A DNA stretch of 56,139 nucleotides, the filler included, from Squatina squatina (lineage: Eukaryota): assembly GCA_031763465.1 (NCBI GenBank). It is 3 parts of 3 records of this genome, joined end to end, with 100 filler letters (N's around TTAATTAATTAA, not from the genome) between each part and the next. Parts side by side here need not be neighbours in the genome. Positions count along the whole stretch, not along the records: positions 36,027 to 56,139 come from JARFOE010000058.1; 2 more parts are not named here. One strand, written 5' to 3'. Shown here piece by piece: positions 8,240 to 47,406 of the stretch. Below the pieces are notes generated by a model. It saw nothing but the letters and a program-made list of their open reading frames with translations. It did no database searches and had not been told where the DNA came from. Every line of letters begins with the position of its first letter. The first letter of the stretch is position 1. A program made the translations under genes and the position numbers.

Positions 8240-9558
8240 TGAAAGGGTTAACTGCAGCTCAAAGAAGTGCCATAGTTAATCGCATTCACTAACAGTCCAG
8301 AAATACAATAACTGTGAGCTACGCAGCTATGTGAGGATAATGACGCATCACGCAGAAGACACTGGAATCCCAGAGCCTTCCAGTACAAAGATATTAACCA
8401 CAGCATTGAGACACGGATATTTCCAGTGCCTCACAATGGTTTACTATGTGTTAGCAGTGACAGGTTCTTCATTGTCATTTGCCAAAGTTTACACATTGAG
8501 TCATTCGTTCATTGACTGGCCCTTTTAACAGTAAACCTCACAATAAGAGTGAGACAATTAATCCGAAGGCTATTTATCAATGCCAAGAACCGTCAGGGGC
8601 CCCCGTTGTAACCAGAGAAAAAGCAATTTCACATTATGACATTTCATTCTGAATACATTGTATTTACAGCTCTCCATTTTATATTTTGCAGCCTATTATC
8701 AGGTGAAAGAGTTGCGGCTGAAATGTTGTTTGTGACGCAGGTGACCTGTTAGGATTTGATAAGTATTTACTGCAGAGCACCCGGAGGGTTGTCACATCTG
8801 TTGTTGGCAGAAGCGATGGAAAAAAAATAACCTGGAAATGAGGCGTTTGATTTTTCTGGTTCCTACACTCAAGCATCTGTTGCTATAATTAAGTGGCGCT
8901 CAATAATTGCAAACTATTTAACAGATGGCATAACACATAAAGCAGGATAAACATTATACTAACGCTGATTTTTCCCCTCTAACATTATCAAATGGAGGAA
9001 ACATTTACCCCGATATTATACAGGGCTCAGGTTTAGCTTATTATTGATTTATTTTTAAATACAAAAAGGTTTGCATTTTATTTCAATGGCAAGTTAAAGG
9101 TCATTCATACTTGCCCCCGCCGATAACGAACAGGATATGCCTCTAATTAAGTCTCAATAACTGGTTTCTTTATATAGCGATTAACACGTACACGAAGGAC
9201 TCCCTGCGGATTACCACTTGTACCATTTAACACATAATTTGATTTGGCATCCGATGCTGAGGAGCAAGCCATTTGCTGGATTACAAAGGTGGCATAGCAC
9301 ATTGGGAAACAAACTACACAGCAGAACGTCATGCCAATTGATAAACCTGACTCAAGACCTTCCAGAAGAATGAAAAATGCCATCAGGCACATGCACTGTA
9401 ACTTTGTGAGTTTATATAGGCTCCCGAAGGAAATTTAGTGTTGTACCGCCCAAAATACATGGCTGTGGTCTCTTGCTGTGCACTGCAACATTGCAAATTT
9501 CAGATTGCCGCTGTATTCTGGAAACAAGCCAATGTACTGAGGCTTTAGGAATACTTAC

Positions 9559-9609
9559 ATCATGGTAATATTCCAACATGCTCTGAAGGATTTTCTTCAG
9601 GTTGCTTAC
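9559..9609 (-). CDS. HOOK2: Hook microtubule-tethering protein, 51-nt internal exon (most like HOOK2)
   Basis: Minus strand: acceptor CAG|, VSNLKKILQSMLEYYHD, donor |GTAAGT. Phase 0-0, 17 codons, matching the conserved Hook-domain segment (K-V/I-SNLKK...EY...D/E). The paralog assignment is less certain than the family. Confidence 0.78.
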
Positions 9610-10731
9610 CTGCATTAGAACAGATTTAAAACAGTCAGAATCTCCCAGACAAGCACAAAGGAAGGGAATAGTCAAGGACTCAGTTCATTCCTTTTTAGTA
9701 ACAGATGATGATCTCAAAAAAGCACTGTAAGCTCCATTACAGCAATTACATTCCAACCAATAATAAAGGCTGTGGAAAAATAATTTGATCTTGCACTTTT
9801 CCATGTAATTTTAAACTTGTTTACACACACCAGCATCATAATTAGGGGAAAAGGAGTAAAAAGAGATCCTAAAATGCATTTAGTTTGCAACTCATCTGCA
9901 TAATCAGTATTTTACTCTGTTCTGGTGATAAAGTTCTTTGAGTATAAAGCAGGATGAACACTGTACTAACACTGATTTTTCCCCCGCTAATATTATCAAA
10001 NNNNNNNNNNNNNNNNNNNNNNNNNNNNNNNNNNNNNNNNNNNNNNNNNNNNNNNNNNNNNNNNNNNNNNNNNNNNNNNNNNNNNNNNNNNNNNNNNNNN
10101 GAACAGAAGGAGAACTATTTTTTGTTGATGGCAGCTGCTTGACTTTAATAATTAACTTTCCCAGAAGATTGAACTGTTTGTATAATTAATCGCTAACTTA
10201 AAATTGTAAGGGAGAAGTTGGCACTGGCAAAAAATGGACAAACTATTAATTCAAGACAGTTCGGTTTCATTTTAACCAAGGTTTTAAACAATAAACCATT
10301 GCAGTTCTGCTTTAAACTGCCCAACTATTAAACAACTCGCCCTCGATTGAGAAAGTGTGCAGAGCAAGGGGTGGAAGGAAACACAATATTTAAAGCTAGC
10401 AACAACCTCTCGCCATGCATTTCAGTGGTGAATATAGCATTCCACTTTATAGATTTTATATAAGGTCTGTATACTGAATCTTCAGGCGAGATAGAATTGC
10501 TTGTTCATTAACTGTGAATGCTGTATACTCACACATGCTNNNNNNNNNNNNNNNNNNNNNNNNNNNNNNNNNNNNNNNNNNNNNNNNNNNNNNNNNNNNN
10601 NNNNNNNNNNNNNNNNNNNNNNNNNNNNNNNNNNNNNNNNNNNNNNNNNNNNNNNNNNNNNNNNNNNNNNNNNNNNNNNNNNNNNNNNNNNNNNNNNNNN
10701 NNNNNNNNNNNNNNNNNNNNNNNNNNNNNNN

Positions 10732-38358: not shown

Positions 38359-39129
38359 ATGGAAAACGTTACTAGCAGAGAGTTTGCCTCAACAGAGATG
38401 GACCCATTGCTTTCCAGTCTCTCCACTGTCTATGGTACAGAAATTGCTGATGATACATCCTATTCACAGCTTACTACATCTCCCCTACATAATGTGTCTG
38501 ACCAACCATGCAACTTCATTGTGTCGGCCCAGTATATTTCCAATTTAATCCCAGCTGTCTTCAGTATCATCTTTATCTTGGGCTTCATTGGGAACAGTGT
38601 GGTCATCACCATCCTTTGCCATCGCGTTCATTTGAAAACTGTTGCTAACATCTACATTGTCAGCTTATCAATTGCAAACCTGATCTTCTTATCCACTCTT
38701 CCAGTTTGGGCAGTCTATTATGCTACTGAGTACAACTGGCTTTTTGGGTCAGTGATGTGTAAAATATGCAGCTCTCTTGTGGCTCTGAATTTGTATGCCA
38801 GTATATTTATCATTACGTGTATGAGTATTGATCGTTACATGGTAATTCTCCACTCTCTCGGATCCCAGTCTAAGAGAAGCTTATGCCAAGCTCGCTGTGT
38901 CACAATCCTTGCATGGACTTTGGCGTTGATTGCAACCTTTCCCACTATCTACTTTCAAGATACCCATTACATTGAAGGGACAGGAAACACGCTGTGTGTA
39001 ATGGTTTATCCCCCCAATAAGGCCAACCAGTGGTCTACACTCTGCGTCTGTATTTTACAGTGTTGCCTCAAAGACACAACAGAAATTATTTTTAACAGCA
39101 TTGGGTTTAGTTTCTTGACAGCTAAATGA
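38359..39129 (+). pseudogene. AGTR2: Type-2 angiotensin II receptor, truncated after ECL2 (TM1-TM4 only), probable pseudogene
   Basis: Acceptor TTTTGCAG| at 38348, then ATG. Has GN(1.50), TLPVWAVYY, WLFGSVMCK, CMSIDRY and C..M.YPP.K..QWS as in AGTR2. Homology stops at about 39036 with no gap. Several conserved residues are altered. SLC6A14-like exons lie downstream, as in mammals. Confidence 0.8.
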
Positions 39130-39599
39130 ACACAGCAGTCAATTATCATACTTTTGGCCAAGATGTTGCAACATAGCATTTGGAACTGAGGTAAAGAGGA
39201 CAGTCAATATTAACGTGTTTCCGTTACTTTGGAGTATATTATTCTCTGTTGAAATATTTTTAATGCAACAACATAAATTAGTAAAATAGAGTGTAAAAAC
39301 AGAAATAGTCAACTCCTTACTGTTTATGCTGATCTGAGGATTTCTTACCCTCCAAAAATGGACCAAAAAAGATTGTGAAAAGTGAGGGAAAAATCCATTT
39401 TTGCTGTTAAGGTCCTGTTAAAAGACTACTAACAATAAACTCAGTTTTCATTCTGCAGTTGCCACCCTCACAGTTACCCTCATCCTTGTCCAATCATACC
39501 AACTAACAACACAAAAGGGTAGGCACTTGGGTCTTTTAGCCAATGATGATGTAAAGTTTCTGCTGTGTTGTCAAACATTGAAATCTATATTTTCAACAC

Positions 39600-40139
39600 T
39601 TTGCCTTCTTGGACAGATCTGTGTGCACCTTTGGAAGTGGCTCAGTGAGTTCCAGTGAATGGTGAGACATTACGGTACCCCCCACAATGATGGTGAGTGT
39701 AAAAGGAATGACTTGGGCATTGCAGGGATGCTTTATGGTCTTGGTGTGGGGTGGTGCCAACCTGGCACAGCATGTGGCAGCCAGGGTGTACAGCGTCAAG
39801 AGAAGTAAATGGTGAGGCCATCCCTGGCGTCCTGGGCAGCAATGTGGTCGGGTGCTGATGTCCTCCGTGCTGTGCAGCATCAGGTGATTGCAGAGAAGGT
39901 TGTTGTTGATGTTGGGGACGCTGGTGTGCCTAGTGATGTTGGTGTTGGGGCTGATGATCGTGCTGGGGTTCTGAGGACCAAGGTGAGATTTTTTCAAGGG
40001 CACCGATGCTGCTGGAATAGATGGCAGCTGAAGTTGAGGTGACAGAAGCCATCTGTCAATGATGAGAGAGGTTGCTCCAAGGAGGTGACACTGGATAGAG
40101 AGTTCACTGCAAACACTTCAAACCTCCATAAAGCTGAAA
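39600..40139 (-). mobile_element. Harbinger-type transposon remnant (degenerate transposase C-terminus)
   Basis: Minus strand gives ...GALEKISP... (compare GGALQYSP) and ...HIAAQDARDGLTIYFS*, resembling the end of HARBI1-like transposases. Confidence 0.45.
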
Positions 40140-43344: not shown

Positions 43345-43426
43345 AAGAAAAATAAAATGGACCATAAAGGTGCCCACTGCAACTGTGCAAGAGCTTCTGG
43401 GTAGGCAATGAAAGCCAATCCAAAAC
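43345..43426 (-). CDS. SLC6A14: SLC6A14-like (ATB0,+) transporter exon, EL4/TM8 region, cut by a gap
   Basis: Acceptor TTTAG|, then (G)FGLAFIAYPEALAQLQWAPLWSILFF. Confidence 0.85.
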
Positions 43427-43961
43427 CTAAACAGTGGATACAATTGAAATGATGCAATTAATGGTGCTTAAAAGAGAAATACTGTAAACTGATGTTATTT
43501 ACTTAAAACTCATTAATTTAGAATCCAGATTGTCAAAATTTATCACATTTTGCTCAGTATTTGTGTATTTGGCCTGAGATTTTGTGACTTTTCTCTACTC
43601 ATCAAGGTGAGTGATGTCATTGCTGGGGAACAGGGCAGTTTCCATCCAACACACCTAGGACTCAAAAACCTGAGACTTTTCTGGCAGATTCCAATTCTAA
43701 TGGCCAGAAACTAGGCTGGGATCCATTTACACCAGTTTTACAGTGAGGTTTCTTGGATGGCCACATGGGATTGGAGCCTTTATGCATAGTTTACAACACA
43801 ATTGATGTCAGGGGACTGTATCAGTCTCTGAGGGTGGGATCATGGACAGACAAAACTGCAGNNNNNNNNNNNNNNNNNNNNNNNNNNNNNNNNNNNNNNN
43901 NNNNNNNNNNNNNNNNNNNNNNNNNNNNNNNNNNNNNNNNNNNNNNNNNNNNNNNNNNNNN

Positions 43962-44027
43962 GCTGAGTTTTTCCAGCAATTTTTGTTTGTATTCTAGATT
44001 CCAGCATCCGCAGTATTTCGCTTTTGT
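43962..44027 (-). mobile_element. Penelope-like element terminal fragment
   Basis: Reverse complement AAAAGCGAAATACTGCGGATGCTGGAATCT...TGCTGGAAAAACTCAGC. Related copies at about 35790-35880, 49557-49650 and 55460-55530. Confidence 0.55.
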
Positions 44028-44033
44028 ATTAAC

Positions 44034-44165
44034 CTTGTAGTATTGGCACAGCTTTCCACACTGCAACAGGTCCGAGGCTGGCAAACTGCCCAAAGGACGA
44101 TTCCAAGAAAAACATTGGTATCCCAACAAGTGCCAGCATGAGGGTGTAGGGAATAAGAAACGCAC
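44034..44165 (-). CDS. SLC6A14: SLC6A14-like exon, TM2 region (132 nt)
   Basis: Acceptor TTTTTCCAG|, then [45 protein letters not shown], then donor G|GTTAAT. Confidence 0.88.
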
Positions 44166-44934
44166 CTGGAAAAAATAGTAAAGGAAAGCTGAAAAAGATT
44201 GTATGGATGTTAGAGTGAGCAGGTTTATTCAAACAGTTTTAGGATGGATGTTAAACAACTAAACATTCCACTTCATAATAACACAGGACAATGTGACTGC
44301 AGATTGCAAGTTTACTCAGCATCTGAATACAAAAATAAAACAGCCACAATAAGCATTCAGGCTCAAAAACAATTGCATCAATCCTAACACCCCAGTTCCC
44401 TGCACTGAGAGTCTCAATTGGCTCCTGGCATAAAGTAAATGCTCTATTTCAGCACAGTCCTGTAATTTACAGGGAATTCATTACGGGGTCATTGCTGGAG
44501 GTGAAAATACAATCTGTGCTCCCAGCAGAAACTTCTTGCTTTGATTTTGCTCCAGGAAATGGAGGATTGGTCATTACTGTCCAAACTACAGTCCAAACTA
44601 TAATATATGATTATAACATCAAAAAACATCACAACACTGAATTTCCTCACTATTTTTAGATCAAGCCACAATGTCTGTGTTGGACCTTTACCTGGAGTTA
44701 ATTTCGGGGTGGGACATAGTCTCATCAATTTTACATCAGTTTCATAACCGTTTTTCCCACAATGAAATTGCTGGTGGAAGTCCAGGCCAGTGCTTCCTGC
44801 ATCTGCCCCTTTTACAGGGTTCATAAGGAAACTGAACGATAATGACAGAATGAGGTCACAAGTCCACAGTCCCATCATTGCACCCTGTTACAAACCGCCA
44901 TATCAGTAATACTTTAAAAGTTGTTTTTTAATTC

Positions 44935-45145
44935 ATTCATGGCATGCTGGTGTCGCTGGCAAGGCCAGCATTTATTGCCCATCCACAATTGCCCTGGAGA
45001 AGGTGGTGATGAGCCTCCTTCTTGAACCACTGCAGTCCGTGTGGTGAAGGTGCTCCCACAGTGCTGCTAGGGAGAGAGTTCCAGGATTTTGACCTAGCGA
45101 CGATAAAGGAACGGCGATAAAATTCCAAGTCAGGATGGTGTGCAG
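44935..45145 (-). mobile_element. LINE 3' end (CR1/L2 group)
   Basis: KSWNSLPSSTVG...LQWFKKEAHHHLL, with tail GGGCAATAAATGCTGGCCTTGCCAGCGAC. Confidence 0.7.
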
Positions 45146-45495
45146 ACAACACAAAGCTGGTTGGGCGTGNNNNNNNNNNNNNNNNNNNNNNNNNNNNNNN
45201 NNNNNNNNNNNNNNNNNNNNNNNNNNNNNNNNNNNNNNNNNNNNNNNNNNNNNNNNNNNNNNNNNNNNNCCTCCAATTCTGTGCGCTTTTAGTTTTTCGA
45301 ATAACCACCGACTCTCAGCAGAGTGACTCGAGGCAGTGACAAATGTGGTCCTACAGTCTCGCTGTCCATAGCAGACCATGGTGCACGATTGCAGCTAAAC
45401 ACAATTGGTTTTCCGGCCAGCTGAATCCAGGTGAAAGTATTTATTTAAAATAAATAGTTTCTAATCTAAGCTCCTGTTTCTTGATTCTTTTTAAG

Positions 45496-45663
45496 GTGTG
45501 GGGATCACTATGGTCCTTGTGACTACAATTGGCAACATTGTCTACCCGTGCATCATTGGCTACAGCCTATTCTACTTCTTTGCTTCCTTCCTATCCCCCC
45601 TGCCGTGGGCAGACTGCTTCAGCTGGTGGGGTGCAGATGAAACCTGCAGCAGGACTTTCAGAG
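45496..45663 (+). CDS. SLC6A14: SLC6A14-like exon, TM3/EL2 region (168 nt)
   Basis: Acceptor TTTTTAAG|, then GVGITMVLVTTIGNIVYPCIIGYSLFYFFASFLSPLPWADCFSWWGADETCSRTFR, then donor G|GTACTG. Phase-compatible with exon 44034-44165 but on the opposite strand. Confidence 0.85.
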
Positions 45664-47324
45664 GTACTGTGTTAACTTCTATTGGGTAAAGTATAGACAC
45701 TAACTATTCATTTTTCATTCTGTTGAACAGAATGAGTGAGAAAAAATTGACAATAGTTTAAGTAGCAATCTTCATTTTAATCATATGGAAGGTATCTCAA
45801 GTTATAGAAGATAGATGGGTTGAAGGGGATAGTGGTATCAATTGCCATGGTTTCTTGGAGCTTGCTTGATTGCCAAGAGTTTTTTTTTCCTTGATTGGCC
45901 CATGTTTTTTTTTCTCTTTCTTTGTCCCTCCTAAGAGATTGTTTAGGTTCTAATGTGGGAGATGGCAGGGGGAAGTTGGGATGGGAGGGTAGGAATCAGG
46001 GATATACCCTTTCCTTTGGGTTCGTGGCTAATCTATAAGATCCATTCCAGGTACAAACGATCATAATTGGTCCAGTTTCAGCAAAAAATCTTTATTAACG
46101 TTATCATTGAACATAGAAAATAACATTCAGAGTAGTAGAAACAGTATACTTATATAAGTTCACTGGGGTGAGATCTACACTCAGTACACTTTAAACAGCA
46201 GTCAAAACTCGCCAGGACCCTGCATCTGACTTTAGTTCTGCTGCTTCCTGTACTCTGCGTTCAGAGCGTCTCCAGCAGTCTGCAAAGTCTTCTGCCTCTG
46301 TGCCTGCTTCCATGATGCTGTTCAGGGGCGAAATCGTCCTGCTCCTCCTTCTAGTCTTCAGAGGTGTTTCTTCCTTGATGTTCTCCCTCAAATCACTCGC
46401 CAGAGCTGCTACTTCTCTGGGGCTTGTCTTCGAATCGCACTTGGTCGCTGGAGGTCTCCTCGTGGTGACCCATTTTTATACTTGAATGATTCCTGCTGTT
46501 AGGTACAATATTGCCTACTTCTAGGCAGAAAAACACTTACTCTCTTTTGATTGGTTGTTCTTGTTACTAGGCTAAGGAGTGTACGTTTTTCCCACCTTTA
46601 GGGGTCATAGAGAACTCCCCTAATAACAAGACACCATTATTTTAAAATAACTCTCCACCATTTTGAACGTAACTATATCCACTTAACATACAAGCTTTCA
46701 CACTNNNNNNNNNNNNNNNNNNNNNNNNNNNNNNNNNNNNNNNNNNNNNNNNNNNNNNNNNNNNNNNNNNNNNNNNNNNNNNNNNNNNNNNNNNNNNNNN
46801 NNNNGAGTGAGATCTGAAGATCTTTCTCCTGAGTGAAAGAACAGCAGCAATTCCCCAAACCCCTGAAATGTGCCTCTCATTCCAAGTGTTTCAGTCCCTG
46901 ATACAGGATTTCGGGTGAATTTCCAATTGCTCTGGAAGGCTGGGCAGGGCTGGCTAAGTGAGTGAGCAGATTAGGGTCATGGTTTCATTTGAGTGAAATG
47001 AGATTTGTCTGGAAAATGAGAATAGCAAAGAAACCTGAAGAGTAAATGTGAGGAGTCAAATATACTTATCACACTCTGATCTATTCTCCTGTTTAAATAT
47101 GTACTTCTCTGAATACGAGATGTAAATAAGTTAGAATAATATTGTGCTATTTAGATTCAGTTACAATATGCAGCTCAGGGTTAAATATACCCTTCATGTA
47201 GTTATTACTCCTCCAATTGTCTTCTGCTTTGATTACAATCCTATTTGCCAATCAATGGGATTCAATACTGTAAATATTGTGCCAGCAATACAGGAAAATC
47301 TAACAATCTACTCTCCATGGTCAG

Positions 47325-47406
47325 GTGGTTTATTTCACTGCGACGTTTCCTTATGTGGTTCTCACCATACTTCTGATCCGAGGAGTTACCCTGGAGGGAG
47401 CCTATA
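47325..47406 (+). CDS. SLC6A14: SLC6A14-like exon, TM5 region, cut by a gap
   Basis: Acceptor TCAG|, then [27 protein letters not shown]. Confidence 0.85.

Follow-up and report, generated by a model that had tools for sequence, protein, structure and literature searches.

A truncated AGTR2 reading frame in the assembly of Squatina squatina, the junctions at its break and the AT2 receptors of elasmobranchs

The AGTR2 frame and its scaffold

The window analysed here, the whole stretch of 56,139 nucleotides (filler included) from the Squatina squatina assembly, carries an AGTR2 reading frame. As the initial annotation described, this frame lies within one N-free contig of 2772 bp (37368-40139), where the following features were found.

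38340-38347, + strand: pyrimidine-rich stretch and AG, 11 bases 5′ of the ATG, likely the acceptor site of the coding exon
38359-39129, + strand: open reading frame of 256 amino acids plus stop
38359-39036, + strand: AGTR2 coding sequence from the N-terminus to the end of ECL2 (226 codons, TM1-4), without frameshift or stop
39037-39129, + strand: 30 codons open by chance plus a stop, non-AGTR2 DNA according to the sequence and relatives' contigs

The assignment of this gene to AGTR2 at the orthologous locus is borne out by a tree, a similarity search and its SLC6A14-like neighbours. Among 750 candidates, 45 matches reached E ≤ 1e-40; the top ten were shark and ray AGTR2 proteins, the closest being that of a sawshark (82% identity), and each shark species was represented by one AGTR2 cluster. 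The best solved-structure matches of the frame were human AT2 and AT1 (E 3e-46), and its match to Pfam 7tm_1 spans model positions 1-160 of 260. In a tree of 26 proteins, with three frog AT1-like proteins as the only outgroup and shark AT1 left out, residues 1-226 fell inside an elasmobranch AT2 clade (support 100/100) nested within the AT2 clade (100/100), beside the sawshark and sevengill shark sequences in no settled order. We count orthology as shown and regard the gene as this shark's single-locus AGTR2. Rfam models had no matches in the whole window.

The rest of the window, which consists of 45 contigs (median 982 bp), holds the features below.

About 9550-9615, − strand: short HOOK-like exon, weak HOOK3 match (E 0.63)
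14687-14786: artificial spacer of the same design as that at 35927-36026, recognised from its sequence
19320-19610, + strand: CYP7-family gene, last exon (CYP7A1 as best PDB match, E 2e-27)
29400-30245, − strand: BHLHE22
35927-36026: artificial spacer of 100 bases (a 12-mer that stops all six frames, flanked by 44 N on each side) separating the AGTR2 scaffold from the CYP7-BHLHE22 scaffold
43347-43451, − strand: SLC6A14-like exon, from a sequence match
44032-44166, − strand: SLC6A14-like exon, likewise
45495-45665, + strand: SLC6A14-like exon, likewise
47319-47402, + strand: SLC6A14-like exon, likewise

The window is thus three unrelated scaffolds joined, and adjacency across the spacers is meaningless. 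We take a spacer with six-frame stops to be a concatenation linker; no paper describing it was found among the matches listed. AGTR2 stands near BHLHE22 in the window because the artificial spacers join their scaffolds. A chimeric scaffold had been considered, AGTR2 and BHLHE22 being on separate contigs in all 10 species compared, and was dropped because the spacer divides them. The CYP7-family exon and BHLHE22 stand tail to tail, an arrangement pointing to CYP7B1, the neighbour of BHLHE22 in human. Three transversions are private to this BHLHE22 (29681, Y>D; 29669, Q>P; 29558, A>P) and lie at sites invariant in 10 of 10 aligned homologs; the motif KN[YF]ILMQ occurs in all 120 homologs listed, and the window has D and P at its Y/F and Q. 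The contig is GC-rich, and the changes probably reflect errors of the consensus, though a genuinely damaged allele is conceivable.

The four SLC6A14-like exons (43347-47402) lie 4-8 kb from AGTR2. Their order is scrambled, they occur on both strands, and contig ends truncate two of them. Within the window their linkage to AGTR2 crosses 100-N gaps. In all three testable species (Leucoraja, Pristis and Stegostoma), their best named matches are on the AGTR2-bearing contig. We take AGTR2 to adjoin SLC6A14 in human as well, and the neighbourhood supports, on sequence matches, an orthologous locus. It also disfavours the suggestion made initially that the frame might be a dead duplicate. That the frame is such a duplicate, or a fragment of a paralog placed here by mistake while AGTR2 survives intact at another site, seems very unlikely in view of these exons, of the single-copy depth over AGTR2 in relatives and of the single AGTR2 cluster per shark species. 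The SLC6A14-like exons may belong to one scrambled gene or to two paralogs; three records of this kind exist for Scyliorhinus torazame. A second damaged gene, proposed from changes in their TM3, was rejected, TM3 being widely variable among shark copies.

Truncation and substituted sites in the remaining frame

Compared with Heterodontus AGTR2, similarity stops at 39036, as had been reported, and is followed by 30 unrelated codons (39037-39126) and a TGA. An open run of 30 codons arises by chance with a probability of about 14% at this base composition, so the tail needs no explanation. TM5-7 is indeed absent from the window, in which tblastn with two shark TM5-to-end pieces gave no real match (best E 0.13). 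The gene as assembled has four helices instead of seven, lacks CWxP and NPxxY and cannot encode a 7-TM receptor. If the truncation is real, the four-helix product, without K5.42, CWxP and NPxxY, is predicted neither to bind angiotensin nor to signal.

The initial annotation also read four substitutions as damage. Their codons are as it gave them, and their Ballesteros numbers were confirmed by alignment to human AT2 and to the elasmobranch set. The motif it called YFRD is in sharks YFRG, YFQG or YFQS. Counts below refer to 20 full-length elasmobranch AGTR2 records, with 19 named species among them, the 254-aa Chiloscyllium punctatum fragment being left out.

38662-38664, + strand: N2.45S (AGC, S102), the only private site of the four; N in 20/20 full-length elasmobranch and 9/9 bony-vertebrate rows
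38677-38679, + strand: D2.50N (AAC, N107); N also in full-length Pristiophorus and Hemiscyllium; D 13, E 4, N 2, S 1 (n = 20)
38854-38856, + strand: ICL2 Pro>Ser (TCT, S166); Ser also in full-length Pristiophorus, Ala in Heptranchias; P 18, S 1, A 1 (n = 20)
38956-38958, + strand: R4.64Q (CAA, Q200), derived relative to four aligned relatives (CGA); Q 14, R 4, L 2 (n = 20)

Three of the four states therefore occur in full-length elasmobranch proteins, and only N2.45S still stands as a private change. The initial annotation itself had named the occurrence of its substitutions in intact shark orthologs as grounds for refuting its reading. Four aligned relatives keep N2.45 (38663 is A in 4/4) and R4.64, so both changes are derived in this shark; the R4.64Q change sits at a CpG. 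None of the 40 differences listed, out of 217 against relatives, falls at 38677 or 38854, a weak hint that relatives share those two states.

Differences from relatives are dense in TM4-ECL2 (38929-38999), several being G>A. This stretch includes three adjacent codons reading Q-D-T where relatives have R-G-A, D-T being the tetrapod state. The G>A cluster, considered as a mutational signature of the breakpoint, was set aside because it lies in ECL2, which is variable across elasmobranchs (54% identity).

The frame does not appear to be decaying. Its 226 codons hold no other lesion, and over residues 62-226 the private changes in window and sawshark numbered 13:11, 14:13, 12:12, 11:12 and 8:11 with five outgroups, giving no rate excess over the sawshark. 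At otherwise invariant columns the window has 3 private changes and the other sequences have 2-5; its private residues also include G124E and F151I. Among the 40 listed differences, 30 are common to all four relatives (19 nonsynonymous, 11 synonymous); from these unpolarised differences pN/pS is 0.54-0.70, not distinguishable from 1 (P 0.08-0.22 against neutrality). Pseudogene formation by decay is thus not supported by the coding sequence. The initial reading holds insofar as the gene, as assembled, is truncated and cannot yield a 7-TM product; its decay component does not, and junction anatomy and assembly quality, set out below, lean towards misassembly.

Junctions at the break and their possible origin

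The break was examined through contigs of related sharks, about 90% identical to the window, from runs X1, X3, X5, X9, X10 and X16. Two junctions were delimited.

39016-39036, + strand: junction 1, a 21-bp overlap of the AGTR2 contig (to 39036) and a separate contig (from 39016), in X5, X9, X10 and X16
39016-39170: single-copy segment of 155 bp on its own contig in relatives, with depth equal to that of the AGTR2 contig
39148-39170: junction 2, a 22-23 bp overlap of the 155-bp segment and the next piece, in X5, X9 and X10

In X5, X9, X10 and X16 one contig tracks the window to 39036 and then diverges. Past this point X5, X10 and X16 (three of the four runs examined for continuation) go on in frame with A-A-M-S-L-M-K-N-T-L, the start of TM5. 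X1 and X3 depart at 39018 with a three-residue gap, as in the sawshark protein, and X3 continues H-W-P-A-A-M-S-L-M; these two runs, from one relative at depth 4-6, had no contig over 39067-39321, which we count neither for nor against any explanation. Another contig, of single-copy depth, begins to match the window at 39016 in X5, X9, X10 and X16, after 623-662 unlike letters. At junction 2, X5 and X9 depart at 39170 and 39169, with 167 and 555 unlike letters following, and on the right a contig of X10, the only run to show this side, enters at 39148 after 855 unlike letters. No contig of the relatives linking any two of the three pieces was found. Further downstream, 39424-39700 and beyond is a very high-copy repeat with a summed depth of 10^5-10^6 in relatives. 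Largely because of this repeat, 19 of the 22 sequencing runs among those listed share 0.05-0.13 of the window's words, and none shares half; no RNA run with such words was among those listed.

A new intron that splits the coding sequence, leaving TM5-7 on a downstream exon, would fit a gappy scaffold that could miss an exon. The relatives' runs continue without an intron in 4 of 4 cases, the inserted DNA replaces the receptor sequence rather than interrupting it, the pieces overlap by 21 bp, and, as already noted in the initial annotation, the break has no canonical donor (GT[AG]AG; the nearest is at 39189). We give this explanation almost no weight.

From the mismatch totals, junction 1 can have up to 5 mismatches on its left side and up to 3 (X10, X16) on its right, which does not exceed background; because letters less than 30 bases from alignment ends are unlisted, these figures bound the identity of the two 21-mers. 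The probability that 18 of 21 letters match at one given site is roughly 1e-8 to 2e-7, and on such figures the join at junction 1 is taken to be homology-guided, whether by biology or by the assembler. Both junctions are joins at a short repeat between two otherwise unique loci, and a homology-guided deletion would show the same. Between the 1160-bp coding sequence and an assumed 4 Gb genome, 2-11 exact 21-mers are expected. Against a 20 kb flank, 0.01-0.04 repeats of at least 19 of 21 are expected, 0.2-0.7 of 18 of 21 and 0.2-87 of 16-18 of 21; a near-exact repeat is ten times likelier in an interval of 200 kb than in one of 20 kb.

The assembly is poor here. The cut and scrambled SLC6A14-like exons and the changes in BHLHE22 indicate that coverage appears to drop inside unique coding DNA, and such dropout appears to be the condition that lets a short shared word become the sole path. 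We consider it probable that the break at 39036 is an assembly misjoin at a short overlap; the likelihoods given here for the four explanations are judgements, not computed posteriors. The assembler would have jumped from a 21-base word in AGTR2 to an identical or almost identical word at another genomic site, and would have made a second such jump about 130 bases further on. The true gene would then probably run on into TM5-7 as in related sharks, so that TM5-7 would be present in this animal's genome, with both 21-mer copies presumably identical in this animal and coverage lost on the true paths. This explanation is favoured because, in this assembly, two joins of 21-23 bp flank a piece of 155 bp, about one short read. 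The repeat-chance figures, the assembly-quality checks, and the lack of any other lesion in 226 codons or rate excess over the sawshark also favour it. There is a precedent as well, since a 254-aa Chiloscyllium punctatum record is identical at 254 of 254 residues to a 386-aa record.

The principal alternative, which we regard as rather unlikely, is that the loss is real and recent. TM5-7 and the 3′ end would have been removed by a deletion guided by homology between imperfect 21-bp repeats, through single-strand annealing or template switching. What is left would be a unitary pseudogene or a null allele, too recent to show more decay. On the assumption of colinear pieces, the deletion would span at least about 3.2 kb, as X5 has 2646 unlike letters past 39036 and 623 ahead of 39016. 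The join lies inside a 2772-bp N-free contig, and TM5-7 is missing although the scaffold keeps AGTR2-SLC6A14 synteny; both points weaken the misjoin. Local repeats of 16-18 of 21 are expected, and the derived R4.64Q, the private N2.45S, G124E and F151I, and the 19:11 nonsynonymous to synonymous ratio fit weak constraint; constraint may indeed be weak, since many elasmobranchs have lost angiotensin II contacts. The misjoin is further weakened in that multi-k assemblers usually purge such short-overlap joins, and in that junction 2, whose right side appears in a single run, could reflect an ancient insertion in the relatives that duplicated its target site. Against a real deletion, two joins with overlaps of 21-23 bp occur within 155 bp, and the repeat copies look near-identical, the mismatch bounds not exceeding background; real deletions outside repeats mostly involve a few bases of homology. 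TM5-7 is present in 19 of 19 named elasmobranchs with a record, a count of annotated genes from which losses would escape. Only 4 of the SLC6A14 exons, which we take to number about 13, were recovered, so absence from the scaffold says little.

If the misjoin is true, this assembly can yield in-contig truncations that mimic gene loss, and any other pseudogene called from it should be checked against reads. A real deletion would instead be a further case of lineage-specific loss, in a receptor that has already come under suspicion of being dispensable in sharks.

Elasmobranch AT2 compared with known receptors

What the comparison revealed about elasmobranch AT2 in passing outweighs the truncation in importance. 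In the accessible part of PMC8870451, R4.64, K5.42, D6.58 and D7.32 are given as conserved angiotensin II contacts and D2.50 as the sodium site; the accessible part of PMC7226584 places human AT2 R182 at 4.64 and K215 at 5.42. As far as its accessible part goes, PMC8870451 assumes that cartilaginous fishes have lost functional AT2, citing K5.42I in the whale shark and a truncated C. punctatum record; the idea that sharks can dispense with AT2 has thus been published before. The truncated record corresponds to residues 133-386 of a full-length 386-aa record, which keeps D2.50, DRY, R4.64, K5.42, D6.58 and D7.32. A full-length AGTR2 frame is retained in 19 named elasmobranch species (annotated proteins only, among which true losses are invisible), and 4 of the 20 records keep both R4.64 and K5.42; at the level of protein records, this argues against a general loss.

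Much of the pocket differs from the canonical one. The pair Q4.64 and E5.42 occurs in 13 of the 20 records, and every record with E5.42 has Q4.64. R3.50 is replaced in 12 of 20 (C in 11, F in 1), position 7.32 is K in 6 and G in 9 (n = 20), and every one of the 9 batoid-type rows has N or S at 6.58. CWxP and NPxxY are kept in all 20 records, and identity is 76-78% in the TM regions versus 51-59% in the termini and ECL2, which suggests continuing constraint on the TM regions. Elasmobranch AT2 may tentatively be viewed as rewired, with a charge-swapped pocket in a full 7-TM frame (catsharks, mackerel sharks, batoids), a reading that we hold possible and somewhat doubtful. The wider proposal, in which the rewired receptor serves another peptide or is a non-signalling scavenger and the present shark is the first lineage to delete the gene, strikes us as improbable. 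The recurring Q4.64/E5.42 pocket makes it worth asking whether AT2 of a catshark or skate responds to any peptide, and to which.

A literature search, covering the main text of largely open-access papers, returned shark AGTR2 only in PMC8870451 and its preprint and no description of the elasmobranch AGTR2 pocket pattern; the accessible parts of PMC8015242 and PMC3354321 added nothing on shark AGTR2.

Among intact shark receptors, AGTR2 of Pristiophorus japonicus (UniRef100_UPI00398E5C30) is 82% identical to the window and shares N2.50 and the ICL2 Ser, that of Heterodontus francisci (XP_067903905.1) is 77% identical and shares Q4.64, and that of Heptranchias perlo (XP_067852727.1) is 71% identical. 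Unlike the window, all three are full length (364-386 aa), with TM5-7, CWxP, NPxxY and N2.45. Human AT2 (PDB 5XJM, 5UNF, 6JOD) aligns to the window from TM1 to ECL2 without large gaps (E 3e-46). It has D2.50 and the contacts R4.64, K5.42, D6.58 and D7.32, whereas the window has N2.50 and Q4.64, and the region of the last three contacts is missing as assembled, so that the canonical angiotensin II-binding set is not found. The argument for loss in the accessible part of PMC8870451 resembles the present case, both combining a truncated shark record with a substituted ligand contact.
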